Source of the DNA: a virus
Virus record (IMG/VR): IMGVR_UViG_3300037419_001463
Coordinates: 1-54,463 of that record
Direction: 5' to 3' (one strand)
DNA: 54,463 nucleotides
The position numbers and the translations under genes are program-made. Of this stretch, positions 22,081-40,546 are shown in pieces (the first letter of the stretch is position 1; the number at the start of each line of letters is the position of its first letter). Below the pieces are notes generated by a model. That model saw nothing but the letters and a program-made list of their open reading frames with translations, ran no database searches and was not told the DNA's origin.

Positions 22081-22449
22081 TCAGCGGACCTCGGCCTTCG
22101 CCTTGGCGACGCTGTCGCCCCAGGTCTGGCCGCTGTCCTGCTTGCCCTGGGCTGCGCCCAGCAGCCGACGAGTCCTGCCGTCGGTCTTCAGCTGAGGGAG
22201 GTACTCGTCGAGAGACCACACCCCGATGCCCTCGAGCTCACGGATCAGCTCGAGGTCGACGCCCTTGTAGACCAGGACGTGGCCGACGATGCAACCCGGC
22301 TCGTTGCCGTGCAGGTAGAGGCACTCGTCGTGGCCGTCGGGGCCCCTGTCGTAGACGAAGTCAGCGCCCTTCTCGGCGACGGCTCGGTCGAGCAGCTCGA
22401 CCGCCTCGTCGTAGGTGAGCTCGAGGGTCTCGATGGTTGCAGTGGACAT
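22081..22449 (-). CDS. hypothetical protein (122 aa)
   Basis: ORF track; preceded by the CATCTCTCCACCATCGAAAGGG leader. Confidence 0.65.
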   Translation of the reverse strand: MSTATIETLELTYDEAVELLDRAVAEKGADFVYDRGPDGHDECLYLHGNEPGCIVGHVLVYKGVDLELIRELEGIGVWSLDEYLPQLKTDGRTRRLLGAAQGKQDSGQTWGDSVAKAKAEVR

Positions 22450-22495
22450 GCTGAATCCCTTTCGATGGTGGAGAGATGCGGGTTGCGGTCGAGTG

Positions 22496-22843
22496 CTAGT
22501 CGACCTTGAAGTTCAGGCGCCAGCTGTCGTGTGGTACCCGGGTGAACACGAACTCCCAGCTGAAGCCGAGGCAGTTGGTGTAGCTACGCACCTCCTGCTT
22601 GGTCTCGGGCATACGACCCGAGGCCGGGATCACCCGGTACTCGAGGCGAGTGCCGCGCGAACCGAGGATCTCGTTGACGTGGTAGCGGGAGAACCCCTTG
22701 TGCAGTCCCGTCAGGTGGGTCAGCGTCGGGCAGTGGCCGTCGGGCTCCGAGGCCTGGGCCTCCTTGGCCAGGCCGATGGTCGTGAGCACGACCAAGAGCA
22801 AGGCGACACCGAGGACTGCGCCTCGAGTGAGCGGGTGATTCAT
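22496..22843 (-). CDS. secreted or membrane-anchored protein (115 aa)
   Basis: N-terminal hydrophobic segment GAVLGVALLLVVLTTIGLA followed by KEAQA. Confidence 0.6.
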   Translation of the reverse strand: MNHPLTRGAVLGVALLLVVLTTIGLAKEAQASEPDGHCPTLTHLTGLHKGFSRYHVNEILGSRGTRLEYRVIPASGRMPETKQEVRSYTNCLGFSWEFVFTRVPHDSWRLNFKVD

Positions 22844-22864
22844 CAGAACTCCTTCGTTGAAGGC

Positions 22865-23095
22865 TCATGCGTCCTGGATCAGGAAGCACAGCCGTGGATG
22901 GGCCTTGCCCTTCTGCACGTAGTGCAGATCGCAGAGCGGGCAGATGCGCCAGCCCTTGGGCAGGTTGACCACCGGTGACGGTGGTGCTGGTGGATGAGAT
23001 CGACCACTCGAGATCGAGGGGTTGATCTTGGACCGGATGGCCTGCCGGTTCTTCGGAGTCGGCAGTGCGCACTCGCAGGTAGATGCGGTGATCAT
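22865..23095 (-). CDS. Cys-rich small protein (76 aa)
   Basis: ATG 23095 overlaps the upstream stop (ATGA). CEC ... CPLC pattern. Confidence 0.45.
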   Translation of the reverse strand: MITASTCECALPTPKNRQAIRSKINPSISSGRSHPPAPPSPVVNLPKGWRICPLCDLHYVQKGKAHPRLCFLIQDA

Positions 23096-23307
23096 CACTC
23101 GACTCCGAGCTCGGCGAGCTTGGCCTTGATCTTCTGTGCAGCAGGGTTGGCCATCCCCTTCCACAGGTAGACCTGCTGGTTGGTGGTGAGGTAGCGGCTG
23201 AGCGAGGACTCAGCTGCGACCCGCCGGCCGACCACGCCTGCGGCGTGACGGTGGTGGGTCTCCGAGCTGTGCCCCGCTTGACGCTCACTGGTCAGGTAGT
23301 CGTTCAT
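23095..23307 (-). CDS. hypothetical protein (70 aa)
   Basis: Internal ATG 23307 preceded by the CCTCTCCACCATCGAAGGG leader. Confidence 0.5.
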   Translation of the reverse strand: MNDYLTSERQAGHSSETHHRHAAGVVGRRVAAESSLSRYLTTNQQVYLWKGMANPAAQKIKAKLAELGVE

Positions 23308-23426
23308 CGTGCGTCCCTTCGATGGTGGAGAGGTGGCTGCGCGTCCGATGTCCCCGGTGCTAGCGGGGGCATGCAGCTGATGCCGGCCCACCCGAAGGTG
23401 GCCGGTGATGAGTCCGGTGCTACGGA

Positions 23427-23783
23427 CTAGATGTGGTTCGGACCCGCGCGCACAGGTGTGCACGGGTCGAAGACCCTGCCGTCATGAGACTCGGTCGCCA
23501 CGAGGTGGCGGACGGAGCGAGTCTCCAGAACGTGACGGACTGGTGAGGTCGGCTCGATGGCCGGTGAACTGTGGTCCAGGTGGTTGGCGACATCGTCGCC
23601 ACTCCCCCGGTCGGTGTGCTCGATGTTGGTCGACACGCACGGGACCGGCTGGTACGGTCTGACAAGCTCGGCCTTGCGCGCGAGGCGCATGTCGTCGCCG
23701 ATGCTGTAGCCGGTGGCACCCATGAAGCAGAGGGCGACAGCGATCGCTGCTAGTACAGCTAGCGCTCGCCTCCCCGCCTGCAT
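23427..23783 (-). CDS. membrane or secreted protein (118 aa)
   Basis: Internal ATG 23783. N-terminal RRALAVLAAIAVALCFMGA. The upstream part of the 193-aa track ORF looks non-coding. Confidence 0.5.
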   Translation of the reverse strand: MQAGRRALAVLAAIAVALCFMGATGYSIGDDMRLARKAELVRPYQPVPCVSTNIEHTDRGSGDDVANHLDHSSPAIEPTSPVRHVLETRSVRHLVATESHDGRVFDPCTPVRAGPNHI

Positions 23784-23901
23784 GCCGAGAGTTCTACACC
23801 CGGAGTTTGCCGTCCCCGAAAGTGGGTAGGCAGATCCATTCGAGAACCACTCGACCGGGCTACGGATCCGTAGCCCAGCCGGGTGATGTCGCTGTGTCCG
23901 A

Positions 23902-24024
23902 TCAGTGGATGATGAACCACCAGTCCAGGTCGGGCATGAGCACGGCGAGCATGAGCGCGCACACCGCCGTGCCCCAGGCCAGAATCCTGAGGGCACGGCA
24001 GTAGTCACGCTGCCACTCGTTCAC
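23902..24024 (-). CDS. hydrophobic mini-protein (40 aa)
   Basis: GTG 24024 overlaps the upstream stop (GTGA). Contains LRILAWGTAVCALMLAVLM. Confidence 0.35.
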   Translation of the reverse strand: MNEWQRDYCRALRILAWGTAVCALMLAVLMPDLDWWFIIH

Positions 24025-24371
24025 AGCTCGGGGCAGTCGGGCAGCATGGTGCCGCCGAGCACGCGCTGTGCGTGTGCCACGTTGGCGTTCTCGACCTGAC
24101 CGAGCAGGTTCTCGAGCTCGCCGGCCAGGCGCTGGTTGTATCCGACCAGGTCCTGGTTGTTGATGGTCAGCTGGCGGTTGCGGATCACCAGCCGCTGGCT
24201 GTTGTTGACCTCGAACTGCAGCATGCGCTGCAGGTTGTGCACGTCCGCGATGAGCTGGTGGTTGCGGCTCTTGGTCAGGACCAGCGAGGCCCTGGTCTTG
24301 CGCCGGTCCTCGCTCACCGTGAACAGCGAGGCGAGCAGGACAGCGATGACGAGCAGGCAGACGATGAGCAT
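24021..24371 (-). CDS. membrane-anchored coiled-coil protein (116 aa)
   Basis: Internal ATG 24371 preceded by the CATCTCTCCACCACCTGAAAGG leader. N-terminal MLIVCLLVIAVLLASLF, then a Q/N/L-rich helix. Confidence 0.6.
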   Translation of the reverse strand: MLIVCLLVIAVLLASLFTVSEDRRKTRASLVLTKSRNHQLIADVHNLQRMLQFEVNNSQRLVIRNRQLTINNQDLVGYNQRLAGELENLLGQVENANVAHAQRVLGGTMLPDCPEL

Positions 24372-24698
24372 GGCGTGCGTCCTTTCAGGTGGTGGAGAGA
24401 TGCAAAGAGCCGGCCACACTCACGAATGAATGTGACCGGCTCGGTCTGAACTCTGAAGCCCACACACCTTGGTGGCCCCTTACTCCTCCGGAGAGGAGCC
24501 ACCAGGCGTGGGCGTTATCTCTTGGATACTCCCTTAGAAGCTACTTCTTTTCACTCCCTTGGTTTCCCAATTCCCCAAAGAGTTTCTTCTCTTGGGATCT
24601 ATGCGTAGATCTGGCGCAAGCGTGCGCCGCACCGCAACGGCGGTGGTCGACAGCGTCGACTGAGTGAACCCGAACCAACCGAGTCCACTCCCCCACTG

Positions 24699-24991: not shown

Positions 24992-25357
24992 ATAGTCACC
25001 TGACGTGAGGGTGACTACGTTCGACTACATCGTAGTCACCAGGTCCGACAGTGGCATCTGCCCAGGTCAGAGCGGGTGTAGCGGTAAAGACGACCGCCCG
25101 AATGGTTGTCGATCACAACCATGTAGTCACCCTGTAGTCACCCCCCAGGTGACTACATGTTTCCGCAGGTCAGAGGCGGTTTTCCGGTGATGTAGTCACC
25201 TAGTCACCCCCAAGAATTGGGACGAAGGGTCAAGAAGAGTTACGAAGTTCAGGGTGACTACGTGACTACAACGGGAAAAAAGGGCCTCTGACCTGGGCAA
25301 ACATGTAGTCACCCCGGGGGTGACTACGGGGGTGACTACCGGCCCGAGGGTGACTAC
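24992..25357. repeat. array of about 15 copies of GTAGTCACC / GGTGACTAC, including two inverted ~55-bp composite elements
   Basis: Forward copies start at 24992 (variant), 25032, 25123, 25134, 25192, 25201 and 25305. Reverse copies start at 25010, 25148, 25253, 25262, 25319, 25331 and 25349. Composite units lie at 25123..25177 (+) and 25284..25339 (-). Confidence 0.9.
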
Positions 25358-26752: not shown

Positions 26753-29700
26753 GTGCCGGAGAAGGACCAGCTCGGTCAGTCGAACCTCGGGCAGCTCGCC
26801 CAGCAGCAGAACCAGCCGGCTGCGCCCGAAGGTCTGCACCAGGCGGCAGGGGCCGCCGAGGGCGTGGTCCGTGGCAACCCGGCCCTGGCACAGTCGAGGC
26901 TCGGGCAGCTCGCCGCCGACGAGGGATATCTCCCGGTCGCGCAGTCCTGGTACACCGGCGCCAACCAGGAGGGGATCCGCAACGGCTGGGACACCGACTT
27001 CTGGAACCGGGCCATGGAGCAGAACACCCGGCTCGGCGAAGAGGGTCTGCTGCACTACCAGTTCGAGCAGCCCGACGCCACCGGCGTGGTGACCTGGGAC
27101 CACGACTCGGCCGACGGCCGGCACACCTACCACTTCGGCGACGTGTACGACAACGGCGTCAAGCAGGGCAACGTCTTCGACCAGTTCGACGAGGACACGG
27201 CCAACCTGATGATGGCCGACATCCTGTTCCCGAAGGAGGACAAGGCCCGGCTGTTCGAGCAGGTCGAGGTCGACCCCCAGACCGGGAAGATCACCGACAC
27301 CTCCGCGCTGGCCGCGGCCGTCCAGGCCAAGCGGCAGCAGAACAACACCGACATCCCGAAGGCCGCGGAGGCCGCCGACTTCAACGCCGACGTCGCGGCC
27401 CGGGCCGAGGACTTCCGCGAGGGCCACGTCGACGAGGCGATCACCGCCGGGGGAGCGGCCGGTGGTGCCGCGCTCGGTGCGGGCATCGGTACCTTCGTCG
27501 CACCCGGTATCGGTACCGCGATCGGTGCCGGCGTCGGTGCCGCGATCGGTGGGCTCGGCGCCCACCTGAACGAGGACGCGCTGGTCGAGCAGGCCGCCCG
27601 TGCCTACGAGATCACCGCGATGAGCGACCGGGAGAACGGCACCGGTGCCGCGATCGCCACCGGGCTGCAGCAGTGGGCCGGGTTCGGCGGGAAGCTGATC
27701 TCCCCGCTGTCGAACACCGTGCAGGGCATCGACGACGCCGCCCAGGGCAAGATCGGCGACGGGGTCTCCGAGTTCTACCGGCTCGACGAGCAGGGCCACT
27801 CGGTGGTCCCGAAGTGGGTGAAGGTCGCCGACGTCGGGGCCAGCATCGGCGACGCCGCGCTGCAGTTCGCTACCCCGATCGGCCGTGGTCTCTACACCGC
27901 CCAGATGTCCGGGGTCATCACCGGCGAGGTGGGCGAGCTCGCGCTGACCGGCGGCAAGTCCTTCGACTACACCCGCGGCGGCTTCGACTCGATCTTCACC
28001 GACGATGAGGGCAACTTCTCCCCGACCCAGGCGCTGGCCGGGATCGGCAAGGTCACCATCGACGCGGTCCAGCTGGGCATGGCCCGGGGCCTGATGAGCA
28101 AGGGCCAGTACGCGCTGGCCGCGGTGGGGGAGAAGCAGGTCGGGGGAGCGGGCACGGGGCTGCTCTCCAGGTTCACCCGACGGATCTCCGGCGGCACCGC
28201 CAAGGAGAACACCGCCGAGCTGGCCGGCTTCCGGTTCACCCTGAACGAGGCAGGCGAGGCCACCGGCCGCCGGGCCACGCTGTCGCTGCTGGCCCCGTCC
28301 GAGTCGCTGCAGGCGCTGAGCGCCCGGGTGCTGGCGATGCGCACCTCGGCCAAGAAGGCCGGCGCCCTGTCGGCCGACGACTTCTACAAGGCGGCCAAGC
28401 AGCTCTCCGCCGGCGAGAAGCGGTGGACCACCGCGCTGGTCACCGGCATGGGGGAGGGCTACGAGGAAGCGGTCCAGGCCGTGCTCGACCCGTACTCCCA
28501 CGACGCCGCGATCTCGATGGGCGACATCGGCAACAGCGCGCTGTACGGCTTCGCCGGCGGTGTCGGCATGGGCGCCGGTGTCGGGATCCGGATGCCGAGC
28601 TCGGCCGACAAGCTCTACGCGATGGCCGCCACCGGCCACCGGCTGCTGACCGGGGGAGAGGAGCTCACCCGCTCGGAGTTCGACCGGCTCCCGGAGGTCG
28701 AGCAGCGGGCCCGGGCCTCCCTGTCCGGGATGGCTAAGGCCACCGCCGACGCGGCCTACACCAAGTTCGTGGAGGACCAGAGCGCCACCCGGACCAAGTC
28801 GGTGGCCGCCATCCACAAGCTGGCCGACGCGATCCAGACCCAGCTCACCTCGAGCCTGGCCACCGCGAACCCGCGGCTCAACGGCGCGTTCGTGATCTCC
28901 CAGCTCGAGGACGCCGGCCGGGTCGACGCCGACGGCAACCTGCTGCCCGGCTACATCCCGGCCGACGGTGTCGGGGCCTCCGCGTTCCAGACCGTGGCGA
29001 ACATGGTCAACCACATGCGCGGGGTCTCGGTCCAGCTCGAGCAGCTGCGGCGGGACCTGGAGCTGGCGACCGAGGCGGCTGCGGCCGACCCGAACAACGT
29101 CGAGCTCACCAACGAGGCGGTCCGGCTGCAGGGCCAGGTCGCGTTCACCGAGTCGGTGCTCGAGCTCGGCCGCAAGCTCAACGAGGACCTCGAGGCCCGG
29201 ATCCACCGGATGTACTTCGACCCGGTCACCGGCGTCCAGCCGAGCCCGGCCGACATCGAGGCCGAGGCCGAGTCGATCAACGCGGTGCTCCGCGACCTGT
29301 TCCACCAGCGCCTCGACCTCGCCCCGGACGGCCAGCCGCTGACCGACCAGGAGAAGCTGGCGCTGGCCCACGCGGTCGGGATGGTCTTCACCCGGGACCC
29401 GCAAGATCAGGCCGGCTCCTACCAGCTGCTGGTCCCGCAGATCAGCGCCAAGCTGACCGCGGCGAACTCCAACGACTTCCTCCAGATCAGCGCGAGCATC
29501 CGGCCGGCGCTGACCGCCGACCACGACGGCGACAAGATCCGCCCGCTCAACGAGCTGATCCTCGACGACCAGGCCTACACCGCCGCCCGGTCCGGTGCGT
29601 TCTTCCTGGGCGCCGGCACCAGCGTCAACGTCGGCACCCCGAAGTACGAGAAGTGGATCCTGGAGTACCTGGGCCAGGCGGCCGGCGGCGCCAACCAGGC

Positions 29701-32700
29701 GCTGGCCAACTTCGCCGAGGGCACCATCCTCTCGATCAGCGACGCGATCCGCCGCCGCTACGACGGGGTCATCGACACCGCCGTGCTCGACAAGGTGCTC
29801 GACCCGTTCGTCGACGCGGCCAAGGCCGGCTCGGACAACGCCCGCGAGATCCTGCTGGATGGTCTCGCGCGTGAGGCCGGCGGCCAGATCACCGAGTTCT
29901 CCCGTGGTCACCTGTCCAACGAGTGGCTCTGGCTGGACCAGCTGATCCGGGCCAGCCTGGACGCCTTCCAGGAGGGCTTCGCCGCGCACAGCCCGGACAT
30001 CGGCCCGGTCCCGAACACCGACGTCGTGCTGCCGAACAAGCAGTCGGTCGACGTGCAGGACCGCAAGGCCGACCGGGCCGCAGTCACCGGCGCCACGGTC
30101 GGGCTGCTGCTCACCGGCGACGCGCCGTTCCGGCAGTCCCAGAAGCTGCACTACTCCGCGCTGGTCGCCGCGGTGGTCTCGGCCGAGGAGGCCGGCTCCC
30201 GCGAGCAGCTGTTCGCGCTAGCCCAGCTCTACGAGGCGCTCGGCCAGGGGCTGGCCACCACCGAGCTCGACGCCGTGCGCGCCAAGGACGACATCACCGC
30301 CAGGGTCTACGCCAGGCTCGACCGAATCGCACGAGACGCAGTAGAGCTGGATCCGGGTCTGAACCGGCATGAGGCCCTGGCGGTGGTGGCGAACCTGCGG
30401 GTGGCTGACATCGACGTCGCCACCGACGGCACCATCACCCCGAACGGCCGGGAGATCTCCCTGGCCCAGCTGCTGCTGCGCCAGTCGCTGGCCCAGTGGC
30501 GCCGCGAGGTCGACGAGGTCTTCGACGCCAGCCCGGAGATGCAGTCGAAGTACCACCGGATCAAGTCGATGACCAACGCCGACGGCCAGGGCCGCAAGGG
30601 TAGCCGGGTCAACGCCAGCCGCGCGTTCATCGAGGTGATCGGCGCCCAGCAGCTGTTCACCCTGCTCGGCGACGACGCCCTGGTCTTCGGCCCGCACCTG
30701 ACCGTCGAGCAGTTCCTGCGCTCCTACGTGGCCATGGACGAGCACGGCCGGCGGGCCACCGACCGCAAGCTGAAGGGGGAGGCCGCCTACCTCGAGGGCG
30801 ACCGGACCCAGCACCACAACCCGCCGTACGACCTGGACGAGGTCACCAACGGGGAGATCTCCGGGTTCCGTGCCGTGGTCGACGCGATCCTGGCGGTCGG
30901 CCACAACCGCATCACTATCGACGAGTCGGCCACCTCCGACAAGGACGTGTCCAAGCCGCACCTGCACGGCGAGCTGGCCGAGCGCAGCTACACCACCGGC
31001 GACCAGCTGCGTGACGCGGTCGCCCGGATCCAGCAGGCGATGCGGGAGTTCACCGGGCTGACCGGCCGCAAGGACGGCGAGCTGACCACCGAGATGGTCG
31101 AGCGGCTGTTCAAGGACAACCCCGACTTCGAGCGGCTGGCGCTGAACCTGATCCCCACCGCCAGCGCCAACGCGGTGATCTTCCGCCGCGAGGACGGCAC
31201 CGTCGACCTGGCGAACTGGTTCTACAAGACCTTCACCCTGGACCCGGCCGAGGCCGAGGTGCACGTGTGGCGCAACGTGCTGTTCGCGCAGCTGCGGGCC
31301 GCCGGCGTGAACTTCAACGAGGAGGAGGTCAACGAGGGCGACGCCGGCCGGAAGATGGCCAAGCTCGACCGGCGTACGCACCGGCTGATCCAGCGCCTGG
31401 CGCTCACCCCGGACGGCGGGCTGCTGCTGCGGCAGCTCTTCGACCAGATCGAGTCCGCCAAGTCCATGGAAGGGCTGATGCGCTGGATCAACACCACGCC
31501 CGGCATCCGGGGCGAGCAGGCACCGCTGACCGCCTGGGTCGACGACGTCGCCGACTTCGACGCCGACAAGGCCGAGGGCGGCTGGACCAAGAAGCTGTCC
31601 GGCTCCGAGCTGCGCGAGGCGATCTCCGCCCTGCAGCGCGGCGCCCAGAACCTGGTCGACGACCTGGTCGAGGAGCGGGCCGCGTTCAAGCGCGACACCC
31701 GGGTGATCAACGCGATCGAGAAGGATCTGAAGAACGGCGGCGGCAAGACGCTGTCCCTGCTCGAGACCGCGATCGACGAGGCCGCCGAGCGCGTGGTCGG
31801 GCTGGGCCCGTCGGCGATGATCTACCAGACCGTGGCCGCGGCCCGGGGCTTCTACCCGCAGGCGCACACCAAGGGCAAGAACCCCGACTACCTGGACCCG
31901 GCGGCCGCCCTCGAGGCACACCGGGACGCCTTCGGCTACGTCACCAACTTCGAGCGGGTGATGGCCGCGCTGACCAGCGTCAACCTGGACGCGGTTTCCG
32001 GCAACATGTCCGAGCTGGCCAAGGACAACCTGCGCACCATGGACGACTTCGGCCGGCCGGTGGAGTGGCAGAAGCCCACCGCCGAGCAGTGGCTGGAGCT
32101 GTTCAAGAACCCCGACACCCGGCCGATGGCCCGGGCGATCCTGTTCCCGCAGGCGATGGAGCGCGACTTCGACGGCCAGACCCGGCCCAAGCTGCTGGTC
32201 GGCAAGGACCTGAAGGCGCTGCTCGAGGGCACCAGCCACAAGGACCTGTTCCCCAAGCACGGCCGACTGGACCGGGACCCGGCGCTGAAGTACGTGGCCG
32301 CGCTGGAGGCCGAGGCCCGCAAGCACGGCGGCCACTTCTCGGTGCAGCGGCTGGCCAACGACATCGTCATCGCCCGCACCTCAGCGGCCGACCACGTGCT
32401 GTCGACGGCCGAGCTGGAGAAGATGACGGTCGAGGCGTACCGCCAGATCGCCGAGCTCTTCCAGGCCACCGCCTCGATCGCCGCGGCCGCGCACACCCCG
32501 GGCACCGACCCGCTGGCCGAGATGCGCACCAAGGTCCGGCAGGCCCAGCGCACGGCCGCCGTCGCCCGCCGGGTCGGGATGGCCGGCACCGCGGCCGACG
32601 CCGAGCTCGGGAAGCAGACCTTCGAGATCCTGGTCCGTGACCGGGAGGCCGAGCTCGAGGCCGAGCGCCGGCTGCTGCTGGACGCCTCCGCGGCCGCCGA

Positions 32701-35700
32701 CGACCCGGTCGAGGCAGCCCGCCTGGCGCAGGCCGCCGAGGACGCGCTGGCCGACCTGGACCGGTTCAAGACCCGGCTCGAGCTGCTGCTCGACGAGGAC
32801 ATGACCGGCCGCGTGGTCGCCATGTTCAGCCTGCCCGCCGACCAGGCCGCGGCCGCCCCGGTCAAGGACGCGCTGGTCGACTACGTGCTGACCCACCTGT
32901 CGATCATGGAGCGGTCGTCCTCGAGCATGCTGCTGCTCGACAAGGTCACCCGGCAGCTGCAGGACTCCGGCCGGGCCGGTCAGCTCGACCTGAGCGCAGG
33001 GGAGTGGGACCAGCTCTCGCGCGTGGTGATCGCCGACTACATCTCGGCGCTGACCGCCACCACCGCTGCCGGTGTCTCGGTGGCGCCGTTCCCGGACGCC
33101 GACCACACCGAGGACCAGCGGTACTACGACACCACGTTCTCCTACCTGGTCGACCCGTTCTTCGACGAGAACCACCCGCTGATGAAGGCGGCCAAGCACC
33201 TGCACGGGCTGGCCGGCCGGCTCGGGATGCCGCCGGCGGACGAGACCGACGTGACCCGGTTGCTCGACCGGGGGATCCTCGGCGAGTACAACCTCGGCCA
33301 GTGGACCGCCGAGATCCCGCGGCTGAGCGTCGAGGCGAACCAGCGGCTGGACTCCTCGGCCGCCGAGGTCGCCATCGCCATGAACGGCAACGCGCCGAAG
33401 ACCCAGGCCGTGGTCTCGGCCGCCACCCGCCGCACGTTCAAGGTGCCGGGCCCCGAGCTGCTCTCGGCCGCGAGGCTGAACTGGGACCAGCTGAACCGCA
33501 CCGCCTTCGACGAGGTCGAGCTCACCATGCCCGGCGGCGCCACGGCGCTGCGGCCGCTGGCCCAGCTCAACAACCGGTTCGCCCGGTCGGTGGTGCTCAA
33601 CTACGTCGACGGCGCCGGTCAGGCGCAGCAGGTCGACCTGCTCGCCGGGGCTCCGAACCTGGGCCGGGTGTGGCCCGGTGACGAGGTTCCGGCCAACACC
33701 GGCTACCAGCTGATCCACCTGGACCGGGTCCGGCAGGCGGTCGAGGACTTCACCCGGAACCTCCAGGTCGACCCGCACGGCCCCGGTGTCTCGGTGGCCA
33801 TCGAGTTCTTCCACCCCGACAGCCAGCCAGCCGAGCCGGAGTGGATGAACAACCTGTTCTTCGAGGGCACCAGCTTCCGGCTGGACGCCGACCACCACGA
33901 GTCGCTCAACGCCACCCTGTGGTTCGCGTTCTCCTCGATCAGCCAGACCGGGCAGCGCAACGCCCTGGACGCCAGCAAGCTCGGCATGCCGGCCATGAAG
34001 GTGGTGCCCACCCCGACGGCCGCCGACCTGGCCACCATCGAGTCGACCTGGCCGGTGGACTTCTCCGCGATGCTGCGCGCCAAGACCCAGGTGATGCTCA
34101 CCTCCGACCTGGGCTTCGGCAAGCTCGAGGAGGAGCCGGGCAGCGAGTTCTACAACGCGGTCTACAAGAACCTCAAGCTGCGCCACTTCGTCCGCACCGC
34201 CGACGCGCTGCTCACCGCCGAGCAAGTGATTGCCATGCAGGCCCGTGGGGAAACCCTGCCGGAAGAGGCTTCACTCTGGGTCCCGTCCGACGACGTGCTC
34301 CGCTCGATGCTGGGGGAGCAGGGCACCCAGGGCGTGGCCCGGCTCTTCGACGACCAGCTCGAGGTCGACCTGGCCAAGGTGCCGACCTACCGCGGCGTCA
34401 CCGAGACGATGCGGCAGCGGTTCGCCGAGGGCATGACCGGGCAGAAGGCCGAGCTCGCCTCGACCTCGGTGGCGCACCGGGCCCGGCAGCAGCTGCTCGA
34501 GATCCGGCCCTACCTCGACGACGCCGCCCGCCACGCCTACGACGCCAAGATGCGGTTCTTCGCAGACGAGCGCCGCGACGCCTACGCCGAGCGGGCCGCC
34601 TGGTCCGGCCGCACCGGCCAGGGTGGCTTCGACCCGAAGGCCAACCTGGGCCGGGCGCTGCAGCGTGCCGACGGGATGCTCCGGGCCGAGAACATCGCCT
34701 TCGACTGGTCCGAGGCCGGGATCACCTTCATCGGCCCCCGGGTCTCCGCCGACTCCGACCTGGGCCGGATGCTGCTGCAGGAGCTGAACGCCGCGCTGCA
34801 GAACGACGGCTACCGCACCGGCTGGATCTACCGGGAGGGCAGCGAGGCCAACGAGCCGCAGGGCATCCTCTCCGAGGTCAGCCTGTCCGGCCAGAAGCGC
34901 GCGCTGCGCGTGGCGCCGGGCGACCTGGTCGTGGTCGAGCTCGACAGCTTCGGCGGTGACGACGTGCTGGCCCGGAAGCGGCTGGACTACCTGGTCGACC
35001 ACGGCGCCACCGTGGTGCTGGGCGAGGACGAAGGCGGCAACAACCTCCGGGTCGAGATGGCGAACTACCTGGAGTCCCGCGCCTACGAGCGGTACGCCGG
35101 CTCCGGCTTCGTCTACCGCCCGGTGGAGACCAACACCCGCTACCAGAACCAGCGGGCCCGGGTGTCCACGCTGCTGGAGACCCGCGGCGTGAGCTCCCGC
35201 TCGCACGTGGCCGCGCTGCTGCTGCCGGACCAGGCGATCGAGGAGAACGCCGCCTGGGTCAACGGCGACAACCCGCGGCTCGGTGGGATCGCCACCACCC
35301 TCAACCTGGTGCCCACCGACTTCCTGGCCGGGTTCAACGTCCCGGTCGAGGGCTTCGCCAACCGCAGCCAGATCGAGGACGTGCGCCAGCAGCTGCGCAG
35401 CCTGGACAACCCCGAGGGCCGCGACCTGCTCCGCAAGCTGGCGGGGGAGTCCGGCATCGAGCTGGACCAGGCGCTGACCCGGATGTTCGACCGGTTCGAC
35501 TCCACCGACGGTGCGGTGCTGCCGGCCGCCGGCCAGGAGTTCGGCACCGGCGACCTGATCCCGCTGGTCGACTCCTTCGGCCGGATCCTGCTCTACCGCC
35601 ACGGCTACAAGGCGCCGACCCGCGAGCAGCTCGAGCGGCAGTTCGAGCAGTCCGAGGGCAAGAACGTCGCGGTCTTCTCCGCCGAGCCGCAGCCCGCGGC

Positions 35701-38700
35701 CACCACCCACCGCGGCACGGTGATCGGGTTCAAGCCGCGCGCCGGCTACGGCATGGCCGTCGAGCTCGACATCCCGCTGCCGGTCTTCGGCGACAAGATG
35801 GTGCTCGAGTGGAACGGCATGAAGTACCTGCTGACCCCGAAGCCGGACAGCGTGGTGCTCCCCGACCACGGGTTCTTCCCGCAGTGGGGGATCGACCTGA
35901 TCACCAGCGCCCACGACGTCGCCAGCAAGGAGGCGTTCGACGGCCTGGTCAACAACCACCGCAACGCCTTCGCCTACTTCGGTGTCGACTTCCTGCCCGA
36001 CGTGGCCAAGTTCTTCGGCGTCGACCTGCACGTGGCCCGGCAGATCCTGCGGGCGATCTCGACCAGCGGGCCGCGGATCTCGGTGCAGGCCGCCGACGAG
36101 CTGCTCAACTCCGCCCACCTCGGCCCCGGCTTCATGGACCAGCTGACCCAGGTCGCCACCCTGCTGCCGGACTCGGTCGCCAACAACTGGACCCGCCGGC
36201 TCGAGGACGCCGCCACGGTCGAGGGGCAGATCACCCGGGCGCTGATCATCTACCTGTCGGTCAACGGCACCCGGGTCGAGGACGTGCTGCAGTCCGGCGG
36301 GTTCAACGACGACACCGCTGCGCCCGAGGCTCAGTCGAGGCTGATGCCGCGCCTGTTCACCCAGGTCTTCGACAACGCCGCGATCGACTCGCCGCTGCGC
36401 CGGGAGATGAACCGCCGGTTCAACGCCCAGCTGCACAACCCCAACGGTGACGGCACCGGCTACAGCCTGAGCCAGACCTGGCAGTTCAGCGTCCGCAACG
36501 CCGACCGGTCCAAGAACCTGGTCGGGATGCTGCAGTTCTCCGAGGCCCACTCCTCGGGCGACAGCCCGCTGAAGAACGGCATGGCCTTCGACGAGCGGGA
36601 GCGGCAGGCGGTCAGCCAGCACTCGGCCGCCATCGCCTACCAGGCGATCGGCGCCCGCACCGCGATGGACCGCGACGTCGAGAAGGCCCGGGCCTTCGCC
36701 GAGGGCCGCGGCATCGACCGGGACCTGGTCGACGGCGGTGTCTGGCGGCTGCTGACCAACGTCCACAAGGACGACGTGGCCGCGGCCGCGAACTGGCGCA
36801 CGCCCACCCTGGCTGAGGCCGAGGCCCGGCGCCGGGCGCGCGAGCACCTGACCAAGTTCCGGCAGCCGGTGACGGCCGCCCGCGAGCCCAGCGACGAGGA
36901 CGAGACCGGCTGGAACGAGCAGCAGCGCAAGGAGGCCGCCAAGATCGGCCGGCAGATCCTGCAGAAGCTGAACCTGCACGACAACCAGATCGAGCTCGTC
37001 GACTTCTGGGTGCGGCAGATGAACGGCGCCGACGACCGGATCACCGGCAAGGCCTACCTCGAGGAGGCCGCGGCGATCCGGGACAACGTCACCAACGGCT
37101 TCCTGCCGGTGGCCGGCGCCGAGATCCCGCTGCTGCACGTGCACGACCTGCAGCTGATCCACCGGGTCAACAAGGGCAAGGCGGACGGCTGGGCGCCGTA
37201 CGAGACCCTGGACCGGGACCGGACCGCCGGCTCGTGGGACGAGTGGGTGCAGGTCGCGCTCGGCTCGATATTCCTGTCCGAGGACTCCTTCGACCCGATC
37301 TACCGGCCGGCGCTCGACGGGCTGCTGCACACCTACCAGAACGCCACCAAGGCGCTGCTCGACATGCCGGTCTCGGTGGACCGGATGGTGCAGGAGCGGC
37401 TGCTCGACCCGCAGTTCAACGCCCTGGTCGCGGTCTCCCTGGACGCCAACGAGAACCGGCGGGCGATCGAGCCGATGCTGCTCGGAGTCGCCAACACCAC
37501 CGTCGACGACCTGCTCGGCGGTGTCCGGATCTCCGGCAAGTCCAAGTCCGCCCCGGCCAGCGAGCGCGCGAAGAAGCGGGCCCGGCTGCACAAGTGGCGC
37601 AAGGAGACCGGCACCCCGCTGCCTGTCGAGGCGCCGCTGAAGGACATGGCGGCCAACGGCTCGAGGTTCATCGAGAAGTCGACGGCGAGCTCGTCGCTGG
37701 CCCGCATGCTGATCAACGCCCGCGTCGGCACCGCGCTGATCAACCCGGCGCTGTACGTCTCGATGGGCCCGGAGCAGTGGATGCGCGGAGCCCTGGACCA
37801 GGGCGCCAACCTGATCACCGGCCAGGCGACCGACGGCGTGCTGGCCACCGCGGCCGCCAAGCTGCACCTCTCGCAGTACAGCACCGACCAGCTCGCCAAG
37901 CTGTCCCGGCTCTACCAGACCCTCGGTGACAACGCCGACTTCAAGACGATGATCAACCGGGAGCTCTGGTACCTGCGGCCGCACGAGCCGGGTATGAGCC
38001 GGCCCGAGCGGTGGCTGGAGAACTACGCCAAGATCGGCTCCCGGATGCAGGACCCGACCCGGGGGATGAGGGCCAAGACCCTGGCCCGCCGCTACGTCGA
38101 CGCCGCCTGGCAGCACATCCAGGCGACGCCGGCGATGAACGTGATCAGCCTGGACCGGCTGATCGCCGAGCTCTCGGTGAACCCGAAGTTCCTCGAGGAC
38201 TACTTCCCCGAGGCGCACCAGGCCGCCACCAACGCCATCGCCCAGCTGCGGTCGCTGAAGAACACCGTGCTGTCCCAGACGCTGCGCGGGATCTACGAGC
38301 CGCTTTCAGAGTCCACCCACAGCGGCCGGGCCTTCTTCGGCACCGTGCTGCTGCGGATGCCGCTGCTGTTCAGCGGCTACGCGATGAACGTGCTGACCAC
38401 GATCACCGGCATGCAGGGGCTCAACGACGCCACCGCGATGTGGCTGCACGGCCGCAACAAGGGCCCGAACTCCCTGTTCGGCCGGATCCAGGCCAAGCTC
38501 CGCGGCGAGCAGTTCGACCCGCAGCGCGACGCCGAGTTCGACATGAGCACCGTCATGGAGGGCATCGACCTCACCCGGTCCTTCATCCGAGGCGGGCTGA
38601 CCCACTCCGCGCTGTTCATGTTCGGCATGATGGCCAGCGGGCTGGGCCTGTCCGGTGAGGACGACGAGACCAAGAAGCGCCGTCGGCTGGCGCAGCTGCA

Positions 38701-40546
38701 GGGCGCCGGCTTCGTCTACGACCCGCGCCGGATCGAGAATGACTTCCGCAACGCCGACGCGCTGTTCGTCGACTGGCTGCCGTTCAACCTGGACTCCTAC
38801 TTCCGGGTGACCGGTGACGACGCGCCCGGCGGCGCCCGGTCGATGGCACAGGCGCACTGGATGCTCAAGCAGTTCATTAGCCCGATCATCGGCATGGAAC
38901 GGTTCTACGAGACCGGCGACTTCCACCAGGTGACCTGGGGCTTCCAGGACGCGCTCGGCTCCTTCCCGCTGATCAACACCCTGATGTGGGACGACGCGGT
39001 CTCCACCGCCAGCGAGATGGCCAAGATGGCTGACGACGAGCAGAAGCTCGGCGGCCCCTCGAACATGGTGGCCAGCGCCGGGTTCCTCACCAACGCCGTC
39101 GGGGTCTACGAGCGGATGCTGTTCGAGAACAGCTTCGTGAACATGATCTACACCGGCCACGACCGGTACGACCGTGACCCGTACGCGCTGCCGCTGCGGG
39201 ACAGCGACGGCACCATCCAGCGCGACATCGAGGGCCAGGCCCGCAAGCAGAACATCTCGCTGGAGAAGTTCGTCGACCCGGAGACCGGCCAGGTCCGCGA
39301 GGGCTACATGGGCCGCGACTACCAGTCGGGGATGTTGCACGCGCTGACCGAGAACCGGGCCACCCTGGCCGCGTTCATGTGGGCGCTGCCGGGCTACGGC
39401 GACGAGGACTACTGGCGCTACAACATGCCGATCAAGACCCGGGAGATCGAGAAGGACCCGGTCTCCAAGGACGAGGCCGAGGCCTTCGTCCGGGCCGCGG
39501 TCCAGGGCGCCGGCGGGCTGCAGAACCTGACCGCCGACGAGCTCTCCCAGATCTGGAAGAACCAGGCCAAGGCGGCCGGCGTGTACGTCGACTGGTCCAT
39601 GCTCGACGACCAGGCGGCCGCGGCCGAGCAGTTGGGCGCAGCAGGCACCGGTCAGCCGGCCGCGCTCTCGATGCTCGACAAGGACGGGCGCGAGGTGCTC
39701 ACCAAGGCCGGCGCCTGGGGCGTGGTCCGCGGCCTGGCCAAGGGCAGCGTGCAGCTCGGCGACGCCAGCCTGGCCGGCATCTACATCACCCCCGAGGTCC
39801 GCGAGGAGATCCAGAAGGAGTGGATGGCCGAGCTGATCCAGGAGGGCGTCAACATGGGCCTGGACCAGACCAAGGCCACCAGCCGGATGAAGCGGCTCTG
39901 GTTCGGTCCGCTCGACGACCCGAGCATCCAGGGGCTGGGCGACATCCTGTGGAGCAAGGACATCTCCTACTCCGACACCGCCACCTACAACCAGCTGAAC
40001 ACCACCTACGTGATGGGCCCCGACGGCCGCCCGTGGGCCACCGGCTGGACCCGTGACGGGATCGCCGGTGCGCTGGGCCTGAAGCCGCTGAAGCGGGCCT
40101 ACGTCTCCGAGCAGGGCGCCACCGGCACCGACAACCGGCTCAACACCACCGACCTGGTCAACGGGCTCAACACCGGCCTGCGCGCCCTCGAGCTGGTCGA
40201 CGAGACCCGCAACATCCCGACCGACGTCGAGATCGGCAAGAAGATCGAGGACGCGATCAAGGAGGCCTCGGCCCAGACCTACACGCCGTACGACACCAGC
40301 AAGACCGGTGGCGGTGGCTACGGCGGGTACGGCGGCTACGGCTACCGCAGCTACGGCGGCGGCTACGGCGGCGGCGGAAGCGGCTACTTCCCCGACTTCA
40401 CCCGGATGTACGCGCTGCCGAACAACATCTCGCCCTACGGCAACAACATCCCGTTCATCAACACGAGCAACCCGATCATCCGTCGCGCCGACGTCCGGCG
40501 GGAGCGGGTCTGGTCAGAGCGAGGAAGGCTGAAGCAGTGGCAGTAG
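26753..40546 (+). CDS. giant virion-module polyprotein (4,597 aa) with a beta-prime-like DPBB catalytic motif; candidate packaged RNA polymerase / ejection protein
   Basis: Uninterrupted 13,794-nt ORF. GTG start 7 nt after AGGAGG. GC3-rich throughout. The end overlaps the portal start by 10 nt. Motifs are detailed in the findings. Confidence 0.9.
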   Translation: MPEKDQLGQSNLGQLAQQQNQPAAPEGLHQAAGAAEGVVRGNPALAQSRLGQLAADEGYLPVAQSWYTGANQEGIRNGWDTDFWNRAMEQNTRLGEEGLLHYQFEQPDATGVVTWDHDSADGRHTYHFGDVYDNGVKQGNVFDQFDEDTANLMMADILFPKEDKARLFEQVEVDPQTGKITDTSALAAAVQAKRQQNNTDIPKAAEAADFNADVAARAEDFREGHVDEAITAGGAAGGAALGAGIGTFVAPGIGTAIGAGVGAAIGGLGAHLNEDALVEQAARAYEITAMSDRENGTGAAIATGLQQWAGFGGKLISPLSNTVQGIDDAAQGKIGDGVSEFYRLDEQGHSVVPKWVKVADVGASIGDAALQFATPIGRGLYTAQMSGVITGEVGELALTGGKSFDYTRGGFDSIFTDDEGNFSPTQALAGIGKVTIDAVQLGMARGLMSKGQYALAAVGEKQVGGAGTGLLSRFTRRISGGTAKENTAELAGFRFTLNEAGEATGRRATLSLLAPSESLQALSARVLAMRTSAKKAGALSADDFYKAAKQLSAGEKRWTTALVTGMGEGYEEAVQAVLDPYSHDAAISMGDIGNSALYGFAGGVGMGAGVGIRMPSSADKLYAMAATGHRLLTGGEELTRSEFDRLPEVEQRARASLSGMAKATADAAYTKFVEDQSATRTKSVAAIHKLADAIQTQLTSSLATANPRLNGAFVISQLEDAGRVDADGNLLPGYIPADGVGASAFQTVANMVNHMRGVSVQLEQLRRDLELATEAAAADPNNVELTNEAVRLQGQVAFTESVLELGRKLNEDLEARIHRMYFDPVTGVQPSPADIEAEAESINAVLRDLFHQRLDLAPDGQPLTDQEKLALAHAVGMVFTRDPQDQAGSYQLLVPQISAKLTAANSNDFLQISASIRPALTADHDGDKIRPLNELILDDQAYTAARSGAFFLGAGTSVNVGTPKYEKWILEYLGQAAGGANQALANFAEGTILSISDAIRRRYDGVIDTAVLDKVLDPFVDAAKAGSDNAREILLDGLAREAGGQITEFSRGHLSNEWLWLDQLIRASLDAFQEGFAAHSPDIGPVPNTDVVLPNKQSVDVQDRKADRAAVTGATVGLLLTGDAPFRQSQKLHYSALVAAVVSAEEAGSREQLFALAQLYEALGQGLATTELDAVRAKDDITARVYARLDRIARDAVELDPGLNRHEALAVVANLRVADIDVATDGTITPNGREISLAQLLLRQSLAQWRREVDEVFDASPEMQSKYHRIKSMTNADGQGRKGSRVNASRAFIEVIGAQQLFTLLGDDALVFGPHLTVEQFLRSYVAMDEHGRRATDRKLKGEAAYLEGDRTQHHNPPYDLDEVTNGEISGFRAVVDAILAVGHNRITIDESATSDKDVSKPHLHGELAERSYTTGDQLRDAVARIQQAMREFTGLTGRKDGELTTEMVERLFKDNPDFERLALNLIPTASANAVIFRREDGTVDLANWFYKTFTLDPAEAEVHVWRNVLFAQLRAAGVNFNEEEVNEGDAGRKMAKLDRRTHRLIQRLALTPDGGLLLRQLFDQIESAKSMEGLMRWINTTPGIRGEQAPLTAWVDDVADFDADKAEGGWTKKLSGSELREAISALQRGAQNLVDDLVEERAAFKRDTRVINAIEKDLKNGGGKTLSLLETAIDEAAERVVGLGPSAMIYQTVAAARGFYPQAHTKGKNPDYLDPAAALEAHRDAFGYVTNFERVMAALTSVNLDAVSGNMSELAKDNLRTMDDFGRPVEWQKPTAEQWLELFKNPDTRPMARAILFPQAMERDFDGQTRPKLLVGKDLKALLEGTSHKDLFPKHGRLDRDPALKYVAALEAEARKHGGHFSVQRLANDIVIARTSAADHVLSTAELEKMTVEAYRQIAELFQATASIAAAAHTPGTDPLAEMRTKVRQAQRTAAVARRVGMAGTAADAELGKQTFEILVRDREAELEAERRLLLDASAAADDPVEAARLAQAAEDALADLDRFKTRLELLLDEDMTGRVVAMFSLPADQAAAAPVKDALVDYVLTHLSIMERSSSSMLLLDKVTRQLQDSGRAGQLDLSAGEWDQLSRVVIADYISALTATTAAGVSVAPFPDADHTEDQRYYDTTFSYLVDPFFDENHPLMKAAKHLHGLAGRLGMPPADETDVTRLLDRGILGEYNLGQWTAEIPRLSVEANQRLDSSAAEVAIAMNGNAPKTQAVVSAATRRTFKVPGPELLSAARLNWDQLNRTAFDEVELTMPGGATALRPLAQLNNRFARSVVLNYVDGAGQAQQVDLLAGAPNLGRVWPGDEVPANTGYQLIHLDRVRQAVEDFTRNLQVDPHGPGVSVAIEFFHPDSQPAEPEWMNNLFFEGTSFRLDADHHESLNATLWFAFSSISQTGQRNALDASKLGMPAMKVVPTPTAADLATIESTWPVDFSAMLRAKTQVMLTSDLGFGKLEEEPGSEFYNAVYKNLKLRHFVRTADALLTAEQVIAMQARGETLPEEASLWVPSDDVLRSMLGEQGTQGVARLFDDQLEVDLAKVPTYRGVTETMRQRFAEGMTGQKAELASTSVAHRARQQLLEIRPYLDDAARHAYDAKMRFFADERRDAYAERAAWSGRTGQGGFDPKANLGRALQRADGMLRAENIAFDWSEAGITFIGPRVSADSDLGRMLLQELNAALQNDGYRTGWIYREGSEANEPQGILSEVSLSGQKRALRVAPGDLVVVELDSFGGDDVLARKRLDYLVDHGATVVLGEDEGGNNLRVEMANYLESRAYERYAGSGFVYRPVETNTRYQNQRARVSTLLETRGVSSRSHVAALLLPDQAIEENAAWVNGDNPRLGGIATTLNLVPTDFLAGFNVPVEGFANRSQIEDVRQQLRSLDNPEGRDLLRKLAGESGIELDQALTRMFDRFDSTDGAVLPAAGQEFGTGDLIPLVDSFGRILLYRHGYKAPTREQLERQFEQSEGKNVAVFSAEPQPAATTHRGTVIGFKPRAGYGMAVELDIPLPVFGDKMVLEWNGMKYLLTPKPDSVVLPDHGFFPQWGIDLITSAHDVASKEAFDGLVNNHRNAFAYFGVDFLPDVAKFFGVDLHVARQILRAISTSGPRISVQAADELLNSAHLGPGFMDQLTQVATLLPDSVANNWTRRLEDAATVEGQITRALIIYLSVNGTRVEDVLQSGGFNDDTAAPEAQSRLMPRLFTQVFDNAAIDSPLRREMNRRFNAQLHNPNGDGTGYSLSQTWQFSVRNADRSKNLVGMLQFSEAHSSGDSPLKNGMAFDERERQAVSQHSAAIAYQAIGARTAMDRDVEKARAFAEGRGIDRDLVDGGVWRLLTNVHKDDVAAAANWRTPTLAEAEARRRAREHLTKFRQPVTAAREPSDEDETGWNEQQRKEAAKIGRQILQKLNLHDNQIELVDFWVRQMNGADDRITGKAYLEEAAAIRDNVTNGFLPVAGAEIPLLHVHDLQLIHRVNKGKADGWAPYETLDRDRTAGSWDEWVQVALGSIFLSEDSFDPIYRPALDGLLHTYQNATKALLDMPVSVDRMVQERLLDPQFNALVAVSLDANENRRAIEPMLLGVANTTVDDLLGGVRISGKSKSAPASERAKKRARLHKWRKETGTPLPVEAPLKDMAANGSRFIEKSTASSSLARMLINARVGTALINPALYVSMGPEQWMRGALDQGANLITGQATDGVLATAAAKLHLSQYSTDQLAKLSRLYQTLGDNADFKTMINRELWYLRPHEPGMSRPERWLENYAKIGSRMQDPTRGMRAKTLARRYVDAAWQHIQATPAMNVISLDRLIAELSVNPKFLEDYFPEAHQAATNAIAQLRSLKNTVLSQTLRGIYEPLSESTHSGRAFFGTVLLRMPLLFSGYAMNVLTTITGMQGLNDATAMWLHGRNKGPNSLFGRIQAKLRGEQFDPQRDAEFDMSTVMEGIDLTRSFIRGGLTHSALFMFGMMASGLGLSGEDDETKKRRRLAQLQGAGFVYDPRRIENDFRNADALFVDWLPFNLDSYFRVTGDDAPGGARSMAQAHWMLKQFISPIIGMERFYETGDFHQVTWGFQDALGSFPLINTLMWDDAVSTASEMAKMADDEQKLGGPSNMVASAGFLTNAVGVYERMLFENSFVNMIYTGHDRYDRDPYALPLRDSDGTIQRDIEGQARKQNISLEKFVDPETGQVREGYMGRDYQSGMLHALTENRATLAAFMWALPGYGDEDYWRYNMPIKTREIEKDPVSKDEAEAFVRAAVQGAGGLQNLTADELSQIWKNQAKAAGVYVDWSMLDDQAAAAEQLGAAGTGQPAALSMLDKDGREVLTKAGAWGVVRGLAKGSVQLGDASLAGIYITPEVREEIQKEWMAELIQEGVNMGLDQTKATSRMKRLWFGPLDDPSIQGLGDILWSKDISYSDTATYNQLNTTYVMGPDGRPWATGWTRDGIAGALGLKPLKRAYVSEQGATGTDNRLNTTDLVNGLNTGLRALELVDETRNIPTDVEIGKKIEDAIKEASAQTYTPYDTSKTGGGGYGGYGGYGYRSYGGGYGGGGSGYFPDFTRMYALPNNISPYGNNIPFINTSNPIIRRADVRRERVWSERGRLKQWQ

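Follow-up and report, generated by a model that had tools for sequence, protein, structure and literature searches.

A giant virion-arm gene of actinobacterial podophages probably encodes a two-barrel RNA polymerase with beta-prime-like and beta-like modules in a single chain

Introduction

What is the function of the giant gene that small podophages of Gram-positive Actinobacteria carry just upstream of their portal gene? The question is raised by the IMG/VR virus record IMGVR_UViG_3300037419_001463, all 54,463 nucleotides of which were analysed and are called the window hereafter. The rightward virion arm of the window opens with a giant open reading frame (ORF), which occupies 25% of this 54-kb podophage genome, and an original prediction had proposed that a part of it is the active-site barrel of an RNA polymerase (RNAP). 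The analysis described here makes it likely that one virion polypeptide holds both catalytic modules of a two-barrel RNAP of the cellular, multisubunit type, and the 'mystery 13-kb gene' of the Microbacterium podophages thus most likely encodes a virus-carried RNAP.

In 2020, the roles of the >13-kb genes of Microbacterium podophages were called unclear, and their products were found to share neither motifs nor similarity with the virion RNAP (vRNAP) of phage N4; in the same study, virions of phage Burro were reported to contain a protein of ~250 kDa, which is above any other predicted product and was attributed to gp27 (PMC7302621). An announcement published in 2021 still described the giant gene product as a 'protein of unknown function', and the GenBank labels within the family are 'hypothetical', 'unknown function' and, in some cases, 'tape measure protein'. 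Literature searches retrieved no paper linking the giant genes of this family to RNAP, and the phages of the family are not mentioned in the searched supplements of a paper on two-barrel RNAPs (PMC10770324).

Conservation of the catalytic motif

The signature of two-barrel RNAPs is an [RK]-x-P strand located 20-100 residues upstream of an aspartate triad (PMC10770324 Supplementary Data 4). In the giant ORF, GAC CAC GAC GGC GAC at 29519..29533 encodes D923, D925 and D927 with H and G in between. The original prediction had quoted the peptide running from R-x-P to DHDGD and had set it beside a segment of Escherichia coli beta-prime. The peptide is present at the site named, with a slip at its start, as the quoted string begins at G876 and nucleotide 29381 belongs to the codon of M877; the beta-prime segment is exact and corresponds to rpoC 421-474, and the three spacings pointed out, Gln at +10 and Pro at +14 from the Arg and Gln at -12 from the first Asp, are true of both proteins.

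In a single sequence, such a motif is weak evidence, because D.DGD is frequent by chance. When the Asp- and Gly-rich giant ORF was subjected to 5,000 composition-preserving shuffles, D.DGD arose in 13.6% of them, the loose signature with which the field works, [RK]xPx{20,100}DxDxD, in 38%, and the tight pattern R.P.{30,50}D.DGD in 0.8%. It is conservation in the family that raises the motif above chance. The window protein was aligned with 126 full-length homologues, which are 23-52% identical to it (n=127). The tight pattern occurs in 126/126 homologues, so the Asp triad, whose conservation the original prediction had named as a check, is kept in every one of them. R881, P883, D923, D925, G926 and D927 are found in all 127 sequences of an alignment in which only 142 of the 4,597 positions are conserved at >=90%. 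The gap between RxP and DxDGD measures 39 residues in 105/126 homologues (range 38-47), S889, G888 and P895 are present in 123, 112 and 114 of the 127 sequences, respectively, and in 116/127 the first two Asp are separated by F, Y or H. Among eight phage proteins, the triad motif reads DHDGD, DFDGD, DWDGD or DNDGD, and N843, R881, P883, G888, S889, R946 and G948 are also invariant. An R-x-P-x4-G-[SGQ] strand is likewise found in P23-45 gp96 (RNPVMGHGG), gp64 (RRPDLPTGQ) and crAss gp66 (RIPNQGQSS); the corresponding strand of E. coli beta-prime is RAPTLHRLG. The invariance of the Asp triad, G926, R881 and P883 despite 23-30% identity is the pattern expected for a selected active site, and the giant protein possesses both elements by which the two-barrel RNAP superfamily is recognized, a conserved DxDGD loop and an upstream [RK]-x-P strand.

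The beta-prime-like module

Searches of Pfam, PHROGs and, with phmmer, the PDB using the whole single protein retrieved no RNAP, and Pfam searches with eight fragments of the region gave no RNAP family. Family profiles led to beta-prime subunits. A 10-sequence full-length profile, searched against 177,635 PDB sequences, ranked gp55 of the PhiKZ non-virion RNAP (nvRNAP) first (E=0.025), followed by two AR9 beta-prime chains (E~0.09), and with a 31-sequence profile the best match was again PhiKZ gp55 (E=0.0059) in an alignment of 99 positions that pairs N843, RxP, GS and DFDGD. Furthermore, hhalign aligned the family over the motif with E. coli beta-prime 421-474 (pairwise E=2.8e-3) and over the same motif with P23-45 gp96 and gp64 (pairwise E=2e-4 to 1e-3).

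For aa 301-1500, an AlphaFold2 model built from 31 sequences has a mean predicted local distance difference test score (pLDDT) of 77, which rises to about 90 for aa ~721-1080 including the motif, and short strands are predicted on either side of the Asp loop. When this model was compared with the PDB by Foldseek, the best 50 matches were all RNAP largest subunits, among them those of Mycobacterium smegmatis, E. coli, Bacillus subtilis and Streptomyces as well as vaccinia Rpo147; the best match was Thermus thermophilus 9uko_D (E=7e-4), and probabilities reached 1.00. Beyond the family's own proteins, the high-probability matches in BFVD were RNAP largest subunits of pithovirus, poxvirus, African swine fever virus (ASFV), AaV and the jumbo Ralstonia phage RP31. 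The match to ASFV RPB1 covers 128 columns with a root mean square deviation (rmsd) of 5.2 Å and a probability of 1.00; tape-measure and coiled-coil proteins remained at a probability of <=0.23 in this search. Profile and structure searches thus agree in placing a barrel of the beta-prime type, the double-psi fold that had been named as a check, at aa 877-932, and on the basis of these models the segment is very probably the beta-prime active-site barrel (Table 1).

The beta-like module

A two-barrel RNAP requires a second, beta-type barrel, which the original prediction had not found by eye. It does not lie near the first one; a candidate was found at aa ~2990-3070, ~2,090 residues further downstream. 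It includes the block FGDKMVLEWNGMKYLL at aa 3012-3027, which resembles GDKMAGRHGNKG...PSRMN of beta. Three lysines, K3015 (124/127), K3024 (126/127) and K3059 (125/127), are nearly invariant and fall in consecutive strands predicted by AlphaFold2. The third hhalign alignment between the family and E. coli beta, which is not significant (E=0.41), places window residues 3013-3069 on beta 1063-1116 (GDKM...GNKG...PSRMN) and pairs K3015 with K1065, K3024 with K1073 and K3059 with R1106.

The AlphaFold2 model of aa 2250-3449 (17 sequences) has a mean pLDDT of 69, and values of 59-92, mostly 75-92, were obtained for aa ~2810-3269. With this model, Foldseek retrieved nothing but RNAP beta chains among its best 50 PDB matches, and 26 matches have E<=1e-3. 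The 50 include the beta chains of E. coli, Thermus and Streptomyces and 7ogr_C of the PhiKZ nvRNAP and cover ~600 columns; the best match was 9fjs_c of Mycobacterium tuberculosis (E=6.5e-5). Judged from the predicted structure, aa 2250-3449 are therefore, with good though somewhat lower confidence than the first barrel, a beta-like module. The distance from the triad to GDK is 2,092 residues in the window protein (median 2,111 in 109 homologues), and this spacing is close to the roughly 2,010 residues that we calculate for an end-to-end fusion of beta-prime and beta, in this order, with subunits of E. coli size.

A beta-like barrel upstream of the Asp triad was sought as well and was rejected: none of the invariant residues there (P515, S516, E568, E571, E572, G599 and G603) is basic, and no beta chain is among the best 50 matches of the aa 301-1500 model. 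By computation, the two modules are homologous to beta-prime and beta, and their catalytic residues are strictly conserved. The order in the chain is beta-prime and then beta, which is not the compact layout of crAss gp66, YonO and QDE-1; structures of single-subunit two-barrel enzymes are absent from the best-50 PDB lists of both models. The closest relatives are the beta-prime and beta subunits of cells, nucleocytoplasmic viruses and jumbo phages, which places the giant protein in the multisubunit clade. Of the layout that had been proposed for it, the two-barrel superfamily stands, and the compact crAss gp66/YonO/QDE-1 type gives way to folds that match multisubunit beta-prime and beta. The RNAP-superfamily reading of the giant ORF itself is supported by motif conservation, profiles and predicted folds.

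Table 1. Features of the giant ORF and the adjoining gene (positions refer to the window; aa, amino acids)
Feature	Residues	Position	Strand	Remarks
Giant ORF	4,597 aa	26753..40546	+	501.6 kDa, GTG start, no cysteine
Gly/Ala-rich hydrophobic 'glycine-zipper'	aa 228-281	27434..27595	+	Kyte-Doolittle scan
Beta-prime-like module, modelled part	aa 301-1500	27653..31252	+	confident segments aa ~721-1080 and ~1181-1390
Predicted beta-prime catalytic barrel segment	aa 877-932	29381..29548	+	R881-D-P883 at 29393-29401; D923-H-D925-G-D927 at 29519-29533
Beta-like module, modelled part	aa 2250-3449	33500..37099	+	confident segment aa ~2810-3269
Candidate second (beta-type) barrel motif	aa 3012-3070	35786..35962	+	FGDKMVLEWNGMKYLL...IDLITSAHDVASKEAFDGLVNNH
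Conserved lysines	K3015; K3024; K3059	35795-35797; 35822-35824; 35927-35929	+	
C-terminal region	aa ~3950-4597	38600..40543	+	most conserved part of the family; conservation profiles
Portal-like gene, directly 3' of the giant ORF	654 aa	40537..42501	+	

Alternative explanations

Several observations weigh against the assignment of a two-barrel RNAP of the multisubunit type. RNAP families of Pfam were not matched even at E<=10, neither by the window protein nor by 10 diverse homologues. The AlphaFold2 models, for which the alignments were shallow (31 and 17 sequences), reach low predicted template modelling scores (pTM) of 0.46 and 0.44, and the Foldseek template modelling scores of ~0.1 with large rmsd mean that only local cores match. 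The bridge helix and the trigger loop were not identified, and a protein without cysteine also lacks the Zn sites of cellular beta-prime. The two modules lie ~2,100 residues apart and were modelled separately. The beta-like assignment rests on predicted structure, because the sequence alignment with beta is not significant; hmmsearch against E. coli beta was likewise not significant, leaving this module unseen by HMMER, and a 40-sequence profile of the beta-like barrel gave no PDB match at E<=10. Alpha-, omega- or sigma-like partners were not found among the other ORFs scanned, and the association with the virion is taken from the relative Burro (PMC7302621), not from the window phage.

One alternative is a protein that descends from RNAP but is catalytically retired and serves as a tape-measure-like scaffold, that is, as an ejection or internal-core protein of a phage transcribed by the host polymerase. 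Neither a sigma-like factor nor a cognate promoter was identified, the protein is far bigger than catalysis requires, and a tape-measure-like match near the N-terminus goes along with the 'tape measure protein' labels of some GenBank entries. However, the triad, Gly926, R881 and P883 are retained in 127/127 sequences and the three beta-type basic residues in 124-126/127, in a family at 23-30% identity, and the loss of catalysis is therefore considered improbable.

Slightly less credible still is a compact single-subunit two-barrel RNAP of the kind represented by crAss gp66, YonO, QDE-1 and P23-45 gp96, in which ~1,000 residues around DxDGD would accommodate both barrels, the beta-like one upstream, and the remainder of the chain would be unrelated cargo. 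The site of the motif, aa 923 of 4,597, does resemble that of DFDGD in P23-45 gp96, 779 of 5,002 (PMC10770324), hhalign pairs the motif region with gp96 and gp64, and a tape-measure-like PHROG match lies at aa 228-691. The known single-chain enzymes, however, place the beta-like barrel before the DxDxD barrel (PMC10770324), which is the opposite order. Upstream of the motif there is no conserved basic motif, the invariant residues being acidic or Gly, and the best 50 matches of aa 301-1500 contain no beta chain, no 6VR4, no 2J7N and no gp96-type structure, whereas a separate stretch of 1,200 residues downstream matches beta chains over ~600 columns. The strongest case against a compact enzyme is thus that the folds match solely beta-prime or beta and that a second module lies downstream.

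It is very improbable that the protein is not a polymerase at all and that D-x-D-G-D is a Ca/Mg loop or a Toprim- or HAD-like motif of another fold, with a coincidental likeness to RNAP. In addition to the frequency of D.DGD in shuffles and the lack of Pfam RNAP matches, this reading could draw on weak topoisomerase I matches (E~0.1), which an 8-sequence profile gave downstream of the motif. This topoisomerase I/Toprim-like lead was dropped, because the matches miss the motif and vanish with deeper profiles, which replace them with beta-prime subunits, rank the jumbo-phage beta-prime first and align RxP, GS and DFDGD; moreover, two independent structure models retrieve exclusively beta-prime and beta. 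Least probable of all is a two-barrel polymerase that uses a different template or makes a different product, such as an RNA-dependent RNAP or a primase-like or PolD-like enzyme for replication or priming: sequence alone leaves template and product unfixed, and the two-barrel enzymes include QDE-1, which has dual DNA- and RNA-dependent activity (PMC9508822), and archaeal PolD (PMC10770324), but among structures and profiles the best matches are DNA-dependent RNAPs, both cellular and from DNA viruses, rather than PolD or QDE-1, the phage already has PolA, a primase-polymerase and helicases on its other arm, and the giant gene sits in the virion operon.

Protein family and genome setting

Among 50,697 phage records, megablast found no match to the region. 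In protein comparisons, aa 501-2000 have counterparts, with 24-31% identity, in the giant genes of 43 Microbacterium podophages (Burro-like, cluster EK) and of Arthrobacter phage MissAmericana. Burro gp27, Akoni gp31, ArMaWen gp31 and MissAmericana gp30 belong to the same family as the window protein and are collinear with it over the full length (24-36% identity); the giant genes of Burro, cluster EK and MissAmericana occupy the same site just upstream of the portal and share its invariant motifs. The closest relative is a metagenomic protein with ~50% identity. With aa 560-1700 as query, HMMER was run exhaustively against 1.84 billion representatives and yielded 172 clusters, formed at 50% identity from metagenome and genome proteins, and nearly all members are 4,400-4,900 aa in length; by this measure, the family is large, old and size-constrained. 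A word-indexed protein search returned no family members, although the collection searched holds Burro gp27 and Akoni gp31, and negatives of such searches are untrustworthy for very long Ala/Gly-rich proteins.

The giant ORF and the portal-like ORF share 10 nt, the stop of the former overlapping the start of the latter. The portal-like ORF has no Pfam match of its own, but agrees in position and size with the annotated portals of Gshelby23, MissAmericana, Burro, Araxxi, Akoni, Astartes and ArMaWen, which bears out the earlier statement that the giant ORF adjoins the portal. The order of giant ORF and portal-like gene is kept in a metagenomic relative at 24% identity. In the genomes of the relatives, the giant gene opens the rightward virion arm and is followed by the portal, a capsid-sized gene, minor tail proteins and a lysin, and a leftward replication arm lies on its other side; the window is arranged likewise, and its leftward arm encodes a primase-polymerase (Prim-Pol), helicases, PolA, a Cas4-like nuclease and an AAA ATPase. 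Pfam detected no RNAP domain in 30 other ORFs of the window, in line with the claim that no other RNAP gene is visible, and the proposed presence of the protein in virions agrees with the literature on a homologue, since the Burro protein is virion-associated (PMC7302621).

The 54,463 bp of the window compare with whole genomes of 53.6-54.5 kb in the relatives, and the window, judged from positions 1-5700 and 43000-54463, looks circularly permuted. Plus-strand genes at positions 1-~5700, which include an Exo_endo_phos gene (2257-3249) and an amidase-like gene (3039-3881), carry on the rightward arm, and the leftward arm spans ~5900 to 24400. On the minus strand, an ORF at 12372-12797 matches PF18909, the N-terminal domain of dATP/dGTP diphosphohydrolase (E=2.7e-33). 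Enzymes of this type are linked to phages in which one of the canonical bases is replaced. A PurZ-like (adenylosuccinate-synthetase) match was not seen among the ORFs scanned. If the phage DNA were modified, a phage-borne RNAP would make added sense.

Flanking regions of the giant protein

The glycine-zipper, whose hydrophobic stretch spans aa 239-270, is the sole strongly hydrophobic part of the protein and is thus a candidate membrane-insertion element. Around it, the tape-measure family phrog_167 of PHROGs matches aa 228-691 weakly (E=6e-6), and there are weak DUF1269/TraT-like matches on the Gly-rich segment. The C-terminal region has no Pfam or PHROG match; a role in packaging or ejection is a candidate function. 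Within it, a low-complexity stretch rich in Gly and Tyr at aa ~4515-4545 (~40295-40387) precedes a near-invariant basic tail, ...RRxxxRRERxxSERGRLxQWQ (...RRADVRRERVWSERGRLKQWQ), at aa ~4577-4597 (window 40450-40543), in which R4577, R4578, R4585, R4592 and L4593 are 100% conserved family-wide. The extreme C-terminus could be a packaging, portal-docking or cleavage signal.

Cysteine is absent from the window protein and rare in the 126 full-length homologues (median 0, maximum 8); for comparison, 15 cysteines occur in E. coli beta-prime and 7 in beta. This absence may be tied to an unfolded passage through the tail or to an oxidising location. A split near aa 2250 would produce halves of 242 and 260 kDa, and it is tempting to speculate that two such halves account for the single ~250 kDa band of Burro virions.

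Repeat arrays in intergenic regions

The element GTAGTCACC occurs in 16 exact copies in both orientations, compared with 0.24 copies expected by chance. The copies are confined to two clusters, window 25010-25357 and 53401-53636: 11 of them lie in the low-GC divergent region between the arms and five in a second intergenic stretch. Several copies form hairpin-capable palindromes (25133-25156, 25304-25327 and ~53411-53435), and a second shared element, CAGGTCAGAGGCGG, accompanies the arrays. The GTAGTCACC arrays are candidates for promoters of the phage polymerase, operators or an origin. The equivalent divergent regions of two relatives have repeats of their own, namely AGGTAACG/CGTTACCT and CCCNTACGNGACATGGAG in Gshelby23 (17250-17505) and GGTTACGCC/GGCGTAACC and CCATGCGAGACATGG in Akoni (8205-8545). 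A GGT(N)AC-type site thus appears to be present in each lineage in a version peculiar to it, which is what one would expect of a co-evolving pair of recognizing protein and recognized DNA.

Proposed mechanism

If the giant protein is a two-barrel RNAP, its beta-prime-like module (aa ~300-1800) would provide a double-psi barrel with the Mg-binding triad D923/D925/D927 and the R881-x-P883 strand, and the barrel of the beta-like module (aa ~2000-3300) would supply the basic residues K3015, K3024 and K3059. The modules would be flanked by the N-terminal glycine-zipper region and the conserved C-terminal region of ~650 residues. By analogy with the virion RNAPs of N4, crAss-like phages, PhiKZ-like phages and P23-45, we infer that the protein, either whole or as two pieces of ~250 kDa, is packaged in the capsid beside the portal, is ejected into the cell before or together with the DNA, and transcribes the first phage genes without the host polymerase. 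Such a role as an injected early transcriptase is favoured, with clearly less confidence than the RNAP assignment itself; RNA synthesis, ejection, specificity for early genes and proteolytic processing would all belong to it.

A more far-reaching version is conceivable, but we regard it as tentative and rather doubtful. According to it, the cysteine-free 502-kDa protein would be an all-in-one ejection device and transcriptase, which exits via the portal, is anchored in the membrane by the glycine-zipper, folds or reassembles from two ~250-kDa halves into a beta-prime/beta RNAP free of alpha, omega and sigma, and transcribes, and perhaps pulls in, the genome from the repeat arrays; it would represent an unrecognised lineage with reversed module order that is widespread in soil actinophages.

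An RNAP function would give a concrete and testable answer to the published open question about the >13-kb gene, which makes up a quarter of the cluster EK/Burro genomes. Phages equipped in this way may begin infection without the host polymerase, which bears on host takeover and on inhibition of the rifampicin type. The 172 diverse clusters would furthermore offer material for studies on the structure and evolution of a minimal relative of cellular RNAP that lacks alpha, omega and sigma.

Comparison with known RNA polymerases

Phage virion two-barrel RNAPs are already known as a kind, and the family described here is known only as an enigmatic giant gene. What appears to be new is the assignment of an RNAP function to this gene, the architecture of beta-prime followed by beta within a cysteine-free protein of 0.5 MDa, and the occurrence of such an RNAP in small podophages of Gram-positive hosts. 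With a fused RNAP in a 54-kb phage of Gram-positive Actinobacteria, the family would add a further route to virion RNAPs besides those of N4 (T7-like), crAss-like gp66, P23-45 gp96 and the split enzymes of PhiKZ-like phages.

With the cellular subunits RpoC and RpoB, the window protein shares two separate stretches of ~1,200 residues that match the beta-prime and beta folds. The spacing features of its R-x-P...(N)ADxDGD barrel are those of beta-prime, and GDKM...GxK...S(R/K) resembles beta 1063-1106. In contrast to cellular RNAP, the modules are found in one chain, beta-prime first, within a 502-kDa protein with extra termini, which has neither cysteine nor Zn sites, is too diverged for Pfam models and came without alpha, omega or sigma in the ORFs scanned.

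The RNAPs of the jumbo phages PhiKZ and AR9 provide the best PDB profile matches (PhiKZ gp55 and AR9 beta-prime), and PhiKZ 7ogr_C is among the fold matches of the beta-like module. According to PMC7598289, these enzymes are phage-encoded RNAPs of the multisubunit type, which lack alpha and omega, one set of which is packaged in the virion, and they consist of several separate polypeptides in genomes of >200 kb. That no alpha or omega was found among the other ORFs scanned in the window is compatible with relatedness to multisubunit RNAPs, because the jumbo-phage enzymes lack both; the split polypeptides differ from the single fused gene of the window.

P23-45 gp96 is a virion RNAP of 5,002 aa, which is fused to the tape measure, carries DFDGD near residue 780 and has membrane and ejection functions (Chaban et al. 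2024, PMC10770324). Like the window protein, it is a giant virion protein with a DFDGD barrel, and it was found through the same motif logic. It differs in having both barrels in its first ~1,200 residues and a flat, clamp-less single-subunit build of the other major two-barrel clade; furthermore, gp96 is the tape measure of a siphovirus, whereas the Microbacterium phages of the giant-gene family are podoviral (PMC7302621).

The Asp-triad barrel and the R-x-P strand are common to the window protein, gp66 of the crAss-like phage phi14:2, YonO and QDE-1. gp66 is packaged in the virion, and some crAss-like phages have it joined to the neighbouring proteins in one huge polyprotein. The three enzymes differ from the window protein in that their barrels are in the opposite order, they are much smaller, and they are absent among the best fold matches. 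Membership of the crAss-like group was rejected, as hhalign gave no meaningful alignment with gp66.

The vRNAP of phage N4, in contrast, is a T7-like single-subunit (right-hand) polymerase with an unrelated fold, and with about 3,500 aa it is a functional analogue of the giant protein. As described in PMC13434306, N4 vRNAP is a giant polymerase that resides in a podovirus capsid and is ejected to transcribe the early genes.

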